DNA of 64,000 nt, taken from Anaerolineales bacterium (lineage in GTDB: Bacteria > Chloroflexota > Anaerolineae > Anaerolineales > UBA11579). Made by a program: the position numbers and the translations under genes. How positions within the stretch are numbered: the stretch's first letter is position 1; each line of letters opens with the position of its first letter. This document shows positions 61,900-63,060 of the stretch, one piece after another. The notes under the pieces were generated by a model. It searched no databases, was not told the DNA's origin, and worked only from the letters and a program-made list of their open reading frames with translations. The stretch is taken from the NCBI GenBank assembly GCA_035291465.1, contig DATDRZ010000001.1, positions 7,616 to 71,615 of the forward strand. The letters are read 5' to 3'.

Positions 61900-63060
61900 A
61901 TGGTACTAAATCCTAACTTGACGGGACGCGCTGGCACTGAACGCACATACCATGATGAACGTATGATGCACGCCGACTTTGACCAGGCCCCCTTTAGCAT
62001 TGCCTGGGAGGTAACCCGGGCGTGTGCATATGCGTGTGTACATTGCCGCGCAGACGCACAACCCCGCCGTGACCCGCGTGAACTATCCACCTATGAGGCT
62101 AAGGCCTTGATTGAACGCTTTGCCGCGTTCGGCAATAGTCCGATCCTGATTTTCACGGGCGGCGATCCGCTAATGCGCCCGGATCTTTTTGAGTTGATCG
62201 CTTACGCAACTGAGCGTGGCCTGCGTTGCTCCCTCACACCAACGGCGACCGCTTTGCCCACACGGGAACGACTTGAGAAAGCGCTCCACGCAGGGATCCG
62301 CCGCGTTGCGCTTTCGCTGGACGCGCCGCGTGCGAGAATCCACGACGACTTTCGTAAAGTGAGAGGCTCATGGCAGCGCACTATGGACACCCTCCATCGC
62401 GCCCATGATGTTGGACTGAGCGTGCAAGTTAACACTACCGTGGCCAAACACAACATCGACATTTTGCACGAAATGGTGCCGTTCATTCAGGAGGTTGGAG
62501 CCGTGCAATGGTCGGTCTTCTTTCTTGTTCCTACCGGACGCGCTATGGTGGAACAGATGGTTTCGGCTGAACAGCACGAGCAGGTATTCAATTGGCTCTA
62601 CGACCTTGCCCAGATTGCGTCTTTCGATATTAAAGCTACTGCCGCACCCATGTACCGCCGCGTAGCTATTGAACGGAAACGCACACAGAGTACAGGCAAA
62701 CCTGTCACGTTCCAAGGCGCGGGTTTCCAATTTGCAGACGGGCTCCACCGCCCTACCAAAGGTGTGAATGATGGCAACGGCTTCCTGTTCGTCTCGCATA
62801 TCGGAGAAATTCAACCCTCTGGATTTCTGCCGGTCACGGCGGTGATGGTGCGCGAGCATGACATTGTGGATGTCTACCGCACATTCCAAATTTTTAGAGA
62901 TCTGCGAAATCCCGATAAATATAAGGGAGTCTGTGGTACGTGTGAATTCCGTGAGGTGTGTGGTGGTCAGCGTGGACGCGCCTATAGCATCACAGGCGAT
63001 TATCTAGAAAGCGACCCTGCCTGCGTGCTGGTGAGCAGGAAACAAAATCATAATTCCTAG
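61900..63060 (+). CDS. radical SAM/SPASM-domain enzyme, AhbD/NirJ-like
   Basis: CxxxCxxC cluster motif [20 protein letters not shown] (SAM-binding GGE-like). C-terminal SPASM-type [31 protein letters not shown]. Confidence 0.8.
   Translation: [386 protein letters not shown]

Follow-up and report, generated by a model that had tools for sequence, protein, structure and literature searches.

Why should a heme biosynthesis operon that already encodes ChdC (HemQ), the H2O2-dependent coproheme decarboxylase, also carry a gene for a radical S-adenosylmethionine (SAM) enzyme? The question is raised by a 64,000-nucleotide stretch of DNA from an Anaerolineales bacterium (assembly GCA_035291465.1, contig DATDRZ010000001.1, positions 7,616 to 71,615 of the forward strand), referred to here as the window, near the end of which such a gene follows a cluster of heme genes (Table 1). 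It is likely that this gene encodes an oxygen-independent coproheme decarboxylase of the AhbD type, of the variety that retains only the second auxiliary iron-sulfur cluster (AuxII), and that it acts in parallel to ChdC. A first-pass annotation of the same DNA had suggested an oxygen-independent alternative to ChdC, and profile matches, synteny and the genetics of the archaeon Haloferax volcanii all lend support to that suggestion.

Motifs and predicted structure of the radical SAM protein

The open reading frame (ORF) at 61900-63060 is preceded by a Shine-Dalgarno-like motif, GAGGAA, and its product matches the Pfam Radical_SAM family (PF04055) with an E-value of 1.6e-25 and 90.6 bits, against a cutoff of 29.5. 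The CX3CX2C motif and the C-terminal string that had been read from the ORF earlier are both present as described. The AlphaFold model (predicted local distance difference test score, pLDDT, 87.8) has the SPASM/twitch radical SAM fold, and the invariant C42, C46 and C49, the Pfam score and the predicted fold together place the protein in the radical SAM superfamily. An exact-sequence lookup of the 386-residue protein gave no record.

A full SPASM domain comprises a CX9-15GX4C region, a CX2CX5CX2-3C motif and a distal cysteine, with seven or eight cysteines in total serving two auxiliary clusters. The window protein has only the four that belong to AuxII, in exactly the AuxII spacing (C345-X2-C348-X5-C354-X20-C375). 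These four, like the three radical SAM cysteines, are invariant among 34 diverse family members and among 121 Anaerolineales sequences. The first-pass annotation had described one cysteine as replaced by glutamine, which is correct for the CX2CX5CX2C motif, where Q357 (62968-62970) stands in for the fourth cysteine, but understates the loss: none of the four ligand positions of the first auxiliary cluster (AuxI) holds a cysteine. In an alignment these positions are A248, V289, S307 and Q357, against cysteine at all four in full-SPASM relatives. The A/V/S/Q combination is invariant across the 121 Anaerolineales sequences; most other members of the family to which the protein belongs (TIGR04053, below) have glutamate or alanine, a variable residue, serine and serine.

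The top structural matches of the model are PqqE, SkfB, SuiB, BlsE and anSME. All matches of the fold search were generic SPASM/twitch enzymes, a result that does not discriminate between functions. No AhbD-family structure was found by sequence in the PDB copy searched, where the best sequence matches are BlsE (7vob, 3e-17) and PqqE (6c8v, 2.5e-16); the latter is also the top structural match, with BlsE at rank eight. BlsE is a radical SAM decarboxylase, as is proposed for the window protein, but BlsE and PqqE act on unrelated substrates and are only 17-19% identical to it over the structural alignment.

Family placement

The only curated NCBIfam model that the protein passes is TIGR04053, formerly the 'BA_1875 family', with 441 bits against a cutoff of 395 and a match to model positions 2-364 of 366. 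The next-best model is that of the AhbD heme b synthase (TIGR04545), at 356 bits and below its cutoff of 500. The same two models lead in nine diverse homologues (from a haloarchaeon, Bacillus cereus, Solirubrobacteraceae, Acidobacteria, Gemmatimonadota, Nitrospinota and others), all of which pass TIGR04053 and have AhbD in second place at 330-385 bits, below the AhbD cutoff. NirJ2 (TIGR04055, 245 bits, cutoff 500), AhbC (TIGR04546, 156 bits, cutoff 650) and NirJ (TIGR04051, 133 bits, cutoff 515) fall far below their cutoffs, and the NirJ1 model gives 158 bits. Like the window protein, NirJ2, NirJ and AhbC (NirJ1) are SPASM radical SAM enzymes of the tetrapyrrole-modifying subfamily, but these three, which serve heme d1 synthesis and the conversion of siroheme to heme, remove acetate or propionate groups from different intermediates.

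The fold and the structural matches to PqqE, SkfB, SuiB and anSME could also suit a SPASM-type maturase of a ribosomally synthesized and post-translationally modified peptide (RiPP) that stands beside the heme genes by chance, and a 33-codon ORF (63072-63170, plus strand; MNITTHLLTLALPSPKPGFPCCGPAVAKPARL) lies just downstream of the radical SAM gene, within a 128-nt gap. A RiPP maturase is nevertheless extremely improbable, with the best peptide-maturase model reaching 123 bits against cutoffs of 265-725 (mycofactocin MftC, PqqE, sactipeptide and ranthipeptide models) and the gene fixed inside heme operons. By its profile scores, the protein groups with the tetrapyrrole enzymes and not with RiPP maturases, a placement that the first-pass annotation had named as decisive for its proposal. 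As a precursor peptide the 33-codon ORF fares poorly: many of its residues are changed in a 92%-identical contig (L086; L-numbers are labels of the contigs and loci compared), and it is absent from other operons. The substitutions in L086 are scattered over codon positions, and the ORF is probably non-coding.

The closest homologues, at 80-95% identity, are all from Anaerolineales or other Chloroflexota, and are named "TIGR04053 family" by NCBI and, in some cases, "AdoMet-dependent heme synthase" by JGI. In a neighbor-joining tree, the window protein and the haloarchaeal AhbDs are united in a clade that, at its smallest, comprises 70 leaves, none of them full-SPASM (31 of 40 bootstraps). A Solirubrobacteraceae protein, the gene of which faces a chdC-cgoX-cpfC-hemE cluster, is joined to the window clade in 29 of 40 bootstraps. 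The tree is a rough one in which deep nodes are unresolved, and monophyly of all AuxII-only sequences is recovered in only nine of 40 bootstraps. A literature search on the term TIGR04053 found no papers.

Comparison with known AhbD enzymes

The AhbDs of M. barkeri (Methanosarcina barkeri) and Desulfovibrio (TIGR04545), which convert coproheme to heme b, are the only biochemically characterized relatives. They share with the window protein the radical SAM motif, the CX2CX5C...C motif of AuxII and a full-length profile match (the 356 bits given above), but they operate in the siroheme pathway, and their SPASM domain is full, its eight cysteines serving two auxiliary clusters, whereas the window protein lacks the four AuxI ligands. 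According to Fix et al. 2023, eight SPASM cysteines and two auxiliary clusters are typical of AhbDs from methanogens and sulfate reducers, while the AhbDs of non-methanogenic archaea keep AuxII only and have Glu/Ser/Ser in place of three cysteines. The sequence pattern of this second group (CX3CX2C, CX2CX5CX20-38C and replaced AuxI cysteines) is found in the window protein, in a comparison with the supplement of that study made by eye on individual motif blocks; the replacing residues differ, with alanine and glutamine instead of glutamate and serine.

Genetic evidence for an AuxII-only enzyme comes from H. volcanii. A mutant lacking ahbD (HVO_2144) does not grow by denitrification or dimethyl sulfoxide (DMSO) respiration, keeps its aerobic growth and is restored by protoheme, and a mutant lacking chdC (pitA) shows the converse, with impaired aerobic growth (Kosugi et al. 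2017, PMC5746218). A TIGR04053 protein of H. volcanii (P0510, "TIGR04053 family" at NCBI) aligns with the window protein over 353 amino acids at 47% identity. Its gene lies in the order nirK, HVO_2142, DUF2249, radical SAM gene, blue-copper protein, norB, which identifies P0510 as HVO_2144, the ahbD of that study. The window protein is an ortholog of a genetically tested archaeal AhbD, in addition to sharing its family and its motif content and holding a conserved position within heme operons. The two proteins have the same AuxII-only cysteine pattern, and both co-exist with a ChdC. However, the archaeal protein has E/S/S at AuxI positions where the window protein has A/S/Q, it receives coproheme by the siroheme route (AhbA/B/C) and not from CgoX and CpfC, and its gene lies outside any heme operon, in a group with nirK and norB.

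The concept of an AhbD within the coproporphyrin pathway reportedly goes back to Dailey et al. 2015. Reviews describe AhbD in anaerobic or facultative Gram-positive bacteria that have this pathway and lack the other Ahb enzymes, and name AhbD as the anaerobic counterpart of ChdC, writing that a radical SAM enzyme resembling AhbD "might be responsible" for this step. Across genomes, ahbD is reported to co-localize either with hemY/hemH/hemQ or with ahbA/B/C (PMC10548856); the window gene conforms to the former pattern, sharing an operon with chdC, cpfC and cgoX. The pairing of ahbD with ChdC is therefore already published, the novelty implied by the first-pass annotation was too high, and the gene is a further case with a fairly ordinary annotation. 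Minor new points are the AuxII-only identity that TIGR04053 has in common with the haloarchaeal AhbDs, the A248/Q357 signature of the Anaerolineales proteins and the adjacency of the radical SAM gene to chdC.

Proposed reaction

Substrate, product and division of labor with ChdC are what we infer from homology, genomic context and one archaeal genetic study, and the scheme as a whole is modeled on M. barkeri AhbD. The cluster bound by C42, C46 and C49 would cleave SAM reductively to a 5'-deoxyadenosyl radical, which would take a hydrogen from the propionate of ring A, and then from that of ring B, of coproheme (Fe-coproporphyrin III). The substrate radical would then release CO2 and give up one electron, for which the single auxiliary cluster, bound by C345, C348, C354 and C375, is the probable acceptor. 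A vinyl group would remain after each turnover, and two turnovers would give heme b. The coproheme would be supplied by the coproporphyrin-dependent route of the same operon, through HemA, L, B, C, D and E, then CgoX and finally CpfC.

The enzyme would thus duplicate the step of the co-encoded ChdC while needing neither H2O2 nor O2. The two would share substrate and product as well as an operon, but ChdC has a chlorite dismutase-like fold and uses H2O2 and the iron of its own substrate in place of SAM and iron-sulfur clusters. It may be that ChdC would serve oxic conditions and the radical SAM enzyme anoxic ones, as in H. volcanii. CgdH (HemN), the oxygen-independent coproporphyrinogen III dehydrogenase, is a functional analogue, in that it too is a radical SAM enzyme that oxidatively decarboxylates the same two propionates to vinyls, but it belongs to another radical SAM family, has no SPASM domain and, as part of the protoporphyrin pathway, takes a metal-free substrate, coproporphyrinogen.

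Several points weigh against assigning the protein as a coproheme decarboxylase. Its 356 bits fall short of the 500 that NCBI requires of an AhbD equivalog, and NCBI has chosen not to give TIGR04053 a functional name. None of the AuxII-only AhbDs has been studied biochemically or in vitro (Fix et al. 2023). An M. barkeri AhbD variant without AuxI completes the first decarboxylation and accumulates the monovinyl intermediate, so that an enzyme lacking AuxI would need some compensation. Where the archaeal AuxII-only AhbDs have glutamate and serine, the window protein has Ala248 and Gln357. The genetic evidence is from an archaeon whose protein is 47% identical and whose coproheme arrives via the siroheme route. 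The position in the operon indicates involvement in heme synthesis, not in which step. Finally, CgoX normally needs O2, and an anaerobic last step alone would leave the pathway aerobic; the CgoX of Staphylococcus aureus has, however, been reported in a review to work anaerobically.

Some of these points bear on whether another tetrapyrrole is the substrate or product. There is a small chance that the protein decarboxylates coproporphyrin or coproporphyrinogen in the manner of HemN, performs a step like that of NirJ2, or goes no further than monovinyl heme. NirJ2 is the third-best profile, and the loss of AuxI, together with A248 and Q357, could alter the outcome, as the stalling of the AuxI-less M. 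barkeri variant illustrates. Against this stand the NirJ2, NirJ and AhbC scores, all far under their cutoffs, and the window, in which no heme d1, siroheme or nirS-type genes are found. The rescue of the H. volcanii ahbD mutant by protoheme further argues that a member of this family yields heme b in vivo. The results favor naming TIGR04053 proteins probable oxygen-independent coproheme decarboxylases, a modest practical gain.

A complete coproporphyrin-dependent operon

The block that runs from chdC through cpfC, hemA, hemC, hemD, hemB and hemE to hemL lies entirely on the plus strand, with short gaps or overlaps, and each of these assignments, made earlier from the sequence, is borne out by a profile. 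The assignment of ChdC carries a caveat, as its best PDB matches are coproheme decarboxylases (E=8e-23) while its score against NCBIfam HemQ_actino is only 111 bits, under the cutoff of 235. Among the window ORFs of at least 180 amino acids, with a few short overlapping ORFs unscanned, there is no uroporphyrinogen methyltransferase (TP_methylase), no AsnC-type AhbA or AhbB, no HemN and no second AhbC/NirJ-like gene, in agreement with the earlier statement that uroporphyrinogen methyltransferase and ahbABC genes are missing.

As a fallback, the first-pass annotation had offered the idea that the radical SAM protein replaces a missing coproporphyrinogen oxidation. A tblastn search of the window gave no CgoX. 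The final 32 nt, which begin 16 nt past DUF4491b, are nevertheless the start of cgoX, a gene that near-identical contigs carry in full. Contig L088, with 99.85% nucleotide identity to window positions 59898-64000, runs on from the final bases of the window into a complete HemY-family gene (484 amino acids, L088 4072-5526), and cgoX therefore starts at 63969 and is merely cut off. The L088 product is 73% identical to the CgoX of L001, which itself passes TIGR00562 with 293 bits. A second hemL-like gene follows cgoX in L088 (73% amino acid identity between its product and the window HemL), and L086 has the same gene order. With hemE, cgoX, cpfC and chdC present, and cgoX complete in L088, the coproporphyrin-dependent operon is complete.

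An anaerobic coproporphyrinogen oxidase is accordingly a quite unlikely identity for the radical SAM protein. It would have some appeal, in that an anaerobic route also needs the oxidase step to be solved, the recently found CgoN (2024) is almost confined to Bacillaceae, and outside Anaerolineales the heme gene near TIGR04053 genes is most often a HemY-family cgoX. However, the operon has its own cgoX, and nothing is missing. TIGR04053 proteins also serve siroheme-route haloarchaea, where there is no coproporphyrinogen step, and in two loci (L033 and L072) they are encoded beside AhbC-like genes. The closest characterized chemistry is the decarboxylation of propionates and not a six-electron ring oxidation, and CgoN and HemG, the oxidases known to work without oxygen, are flavoproteins. 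Heme synthesis with neither O2 nor H2O2 in organisms that use the coproporphyrin pathway is only partly solved.

Gene order in related operons and other lineages

Related operons were located through their DUF4491 genes (see below), giving 80 metagenome heme operons (L082-L086 and L088-L167); these, like all samples of loci used here, were ranked by similarity and are not random. The radical SAM gene is found in 38 of the 80 operons and is followed by chdC in 19, by hemE in 16 and by DUF4491a, as in the window, in three. The first-pass annotation had made its proposal depend on synteny with heme genes in relatives, and such synteny is clearly present. Seven further Anaerolineales loci also hold the gene within a heme operon. 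The co-location of the radical SAM gene and chdC is a lineage-wide trait, not a peculiarity of the window. The commonest full order, with rSAM denoting the radical SAM gene, is hemA-hemC-hemD-hemB-rSAM-chdC-hemE-DUF4491a-DUF4491b-cpfC-cgoX-hemL, in which chdC and cpfC are not always there. Compared with L102, L105, L124, L138, L146 and L149, the window order is rearranged: chdC and cpfC stand at the head, and hemL and a small ORF precede the radical SAM gene.

No other product of the operon is as well conserved as the radical SAM protein, which averages 80% identity to its counterparts in 15 distant operons; the remaining proteins reach 40-73%. Many related operons that contain its gene show no chdC within the retrieved stretch. 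Given this combination, the radical SAM protein may be the main terminal enzyme in the largely anaerobic Anaerolineales. With a single direction of transcription, the radical SAM gene and chdC often adjacent, and the radical SAM protein the most conserved product, these operons offer a clean model for examining how heme might be made with neither O2 nor H2O2.

The same observations bear on a possible non-catalytic role. HemW, a HemN-like radical SAM paralogue from the heme pathway that was recruited as a chaperone, sets a precedent for a heme chaperone or insertion factor, and ChdC could already cover catalysis. Such a role is improbable here: the catalytic cysteines are all invariant, conservation is very high, and many related operons have the gene with no chdC in the retrieved stretch.

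For lineages beyond the Anaerolineales, a family scan with one genome per species gave 593 confirmed matches, of which the best 80 were taken as loci. The scan pattern (CGG[SC]R...) left out the Anaerolineales type, and the sample is biased in this respect; its best 80 come from Bacillaceae, Actinomycetes, Acidobacteriota, Gemmatimonadota, Planctomycetota, Nitrospinota, Armatimonadota, Dehalococcoidia and haloarchaea. In 14 of these 80 loci, the 10 kb to either side of the TIGR04053 gene include heme-pathway genes, of the HemY family or other; one of the 14 is the Solirubrobacteraceae locus with the facing chdC-cgoX-cpfC-hemE cluster. A HemY-family cgoX directly adjoins the TIGR04053 gene in six loci (L035, L038, L039, L044, L068 and L069). 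In two others a NirJ1/AhbC-like gene is the neighbor: in L033, from a Bacillota metagenome-assembled genome (MAG), at 8669-9850 (minus strand, 612 bits to NirJ1), and in L072, from a Candidatus Rubrimentiphilum MAG, at 11010-12236 (plus strand, 477 bits). These two loci show the classic AhbC-AhbD pairing, so that TIGR04053 proteins are paired with the siroheme route in bacteria as well. Second radical SAM genes in Bacillaceae loci were also suspected of encoding AhbC, but proved to be MoaA (401 bits), which leaves L033 and L072 as the only real cases.

Frequent neighbors in the 80 loci are Crp/Fnr regulators (24), ScdA/RIC (19), Fe-S assembly proteins (15), YwiC (12), heme-copper oxidase-like proteins (eight) and qNor-like proteins (seven), and the Crp/Fnr, ScdA and qNor-like neighbors point to use under anoxic or denitrifying conditions. 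In Bacillaceae and Acidobacteriota (L004-L015, L022-L027, L030, L047 and L054-L062), the TIGR04053 gene is located outside heme operons, near genes for Crp/Fnr, ScdA/RIC, FeS_assembly_P, YwiC, moaA-moeA-mobB and heme-copper oxidase-like or qNor-like proteins. This is an anaerobic or nitrosative-stress neighborhood, and resembles the nirK/norB setting of H. volcanii ahbD.

A polytopic membrane protein of about 420 amino acids, with no Pfam or NCBIfam family, is encoded near TIGR04053 genes in seven loci from Bacillaceae and a haloarchaeon (L006, L007, L011, L025, L027, L033 and L071), often beside heme-copper oxidase-like genes.

The DUF4491 membrane-protein pair

Downstream of the radical SAM gene, and part of the operon, are two paralogous genes for DUF4491 membrane proteins, here called DUF4491a and DUF4491b. 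The pair lies inside the heme operon in all 80 related metagenome loci, which were found through these very genes. Of 49 informative loci, 46 have hemE immediately upstream of the pair; on the downstream side, the next gene is cpfC or cgoX in 54 loci of 55. DUF4491b has a mean identity of 73% to its counterparts in 14 distant operons, more than HemA, HemC, HemD, HemE, HemL, ChdC or CpfC; HemB alone, at 70%, comes near. Both paralogues have invariant E27, E74, Q78 and R81 and no invariant histidine or cysteine. The model of DUF4491b is a helical membrane protein (pLDDT 79, classed as confident). A fold search gave no significant match, the best being the mitochondrial pyruvate carrier with E=2.2, and a literature search on DUF4491 found no papers.

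The pair is a candidate accessory factor of heme synthesis, and the less ordinary lead in this locus. One speculative and rather doubtful idea is that the radical SAM enzyme, having lost AuxI, depends on the pair, which might provide an electron outlet or handle substrate for it or for CgoX. The end of the pathway would then be membrane-coupled and oxygen-independent, with a component that has gone unrecognized. What suggests this is solely the strict co-location of the genes and the strong conservation of DUF4491b.

Operon features and surrounding genes

The features of the operon are collected in Table 1. The small membrane gene that the first-pass annotation had placed before the radical SAM gene is present and has a strong Shine-Dalgarno motif, GAAGGAGG, 6 nt before its start. 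In L086 and L088, the nearest contigs, conservation of its product is 91-100%, and the product is detected in L089 too; it is absent from the other related operons and has no Pfam or NCBIfam match.

Table 1. Genes and motifs of the heme operon, in window positions
Feature	Position	Strand	Evidence or remark
chdC (hemQ), H2O2-dependent coproheme decarboxylase, actinobacterial type	53464..54177	+	Pfam Chlor_dismutase 149 bits
cpfC (hemH), ferrochelatase	54144..55127	+	TIGR00109 237 bits (cutoff 125); Pfam Ferrochelatase 281 bits
hemA, glutamyl-tRNA reductase	55133..56398	+	TIGR01035 400 bits
hemC, porphobilinogen deaminase	56408..57316	+	Pfam Porphobil_deam 261 bits
hemD, uroporphyrinogen-III synthase	57291..58085	+	Pfam HEM4 185 bits
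hemB, porphobilinogen synthase	58082..59107	+	Pfam ALAD 486 bits
hemE, uroporphyrinogen decarboxylase	59092..60168	+	TIGR01464 432 bits
hemL, glutamate-1-semialdehyde aminomutase	60179..61480	+	TIGR00713 635 bits
Small hydrophobic ORF, 112 amino acids, between hemL and the radical SAM gene	61514..61852	+	No family
AhbD-like radical SAM gene (TIGR04053, AuxII-only)	61900..63060	+	386 amino acids, ATG start; proposed oxygen-independent coproheme decarboxylase
CX3CX2C (C42, C46, C49), radical SAM [4Fe-4S] cluster ligands	62023..62046	+	Sequence motif
C-terminal CX2CX5C...X20C (C345, C348, C354, C375), AuxII [4Fe-4S] ligands	62932..63024	+	Sequence motif
DUF4491 membrane protein, paralogue a, 138 amino acids	63189..63605	+	Pfam PF14898, E=1e-19
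DUF4491 membrane protein, paralogue b, 110 amino acids	63620..63952	+	Pfam PF14898, E=4.5e-24
cgoX (hemY), first 32 nt, cut by window end	63969..64000	+	Window ends ATGAAGGCAAAACATATCCTCGTCGTTGGCGG, reading MKAKHILVVGG

In scans of 51400-64000, predicted promoters and terminators were no more numerous than in shuffled sequence. Divergent from the heme operon is a gene (52545-53207, minus strand) for a helix-turn-helix protein of the MerR/BldC/excisionase type, 220 amino acids long, the C-terminal part of which has no family match. It could be a candidate regulator of the operon; no homologue was seen in the other retrieved loci.

About 2 kb before the operon, with its SAM-consuming enzyme, a SAM-I riboswitch (Rfam RF00162, 88.7 bits, 50030-50130, plus strand) lies directly upstream of metK (50124-51416, plus strand). 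The nearness of metK to the heme operon is probably a coincidence. The called start of metK overlaps the aptamer, and the true start is likely further downstream. A tRNA-Lys gene (anticodon TTT, 52008-52079, plus strand) is located between metK and the divergent helix-turn-helix gene.

The remainder of the window is of a housekeeping character, with rpsB-tsf-pyrH-frr-uppS-cdsA, glpX, gyrA, two-component systems and LysM-M23 peptidases. The latter are three tandem paralogues (526, 546 and 524 amino acids; 11558-17980, minus strand) that combine LysM with an M23 peptidase, and a beta-lactamase-like gene (13151-14929) is found between the first two.

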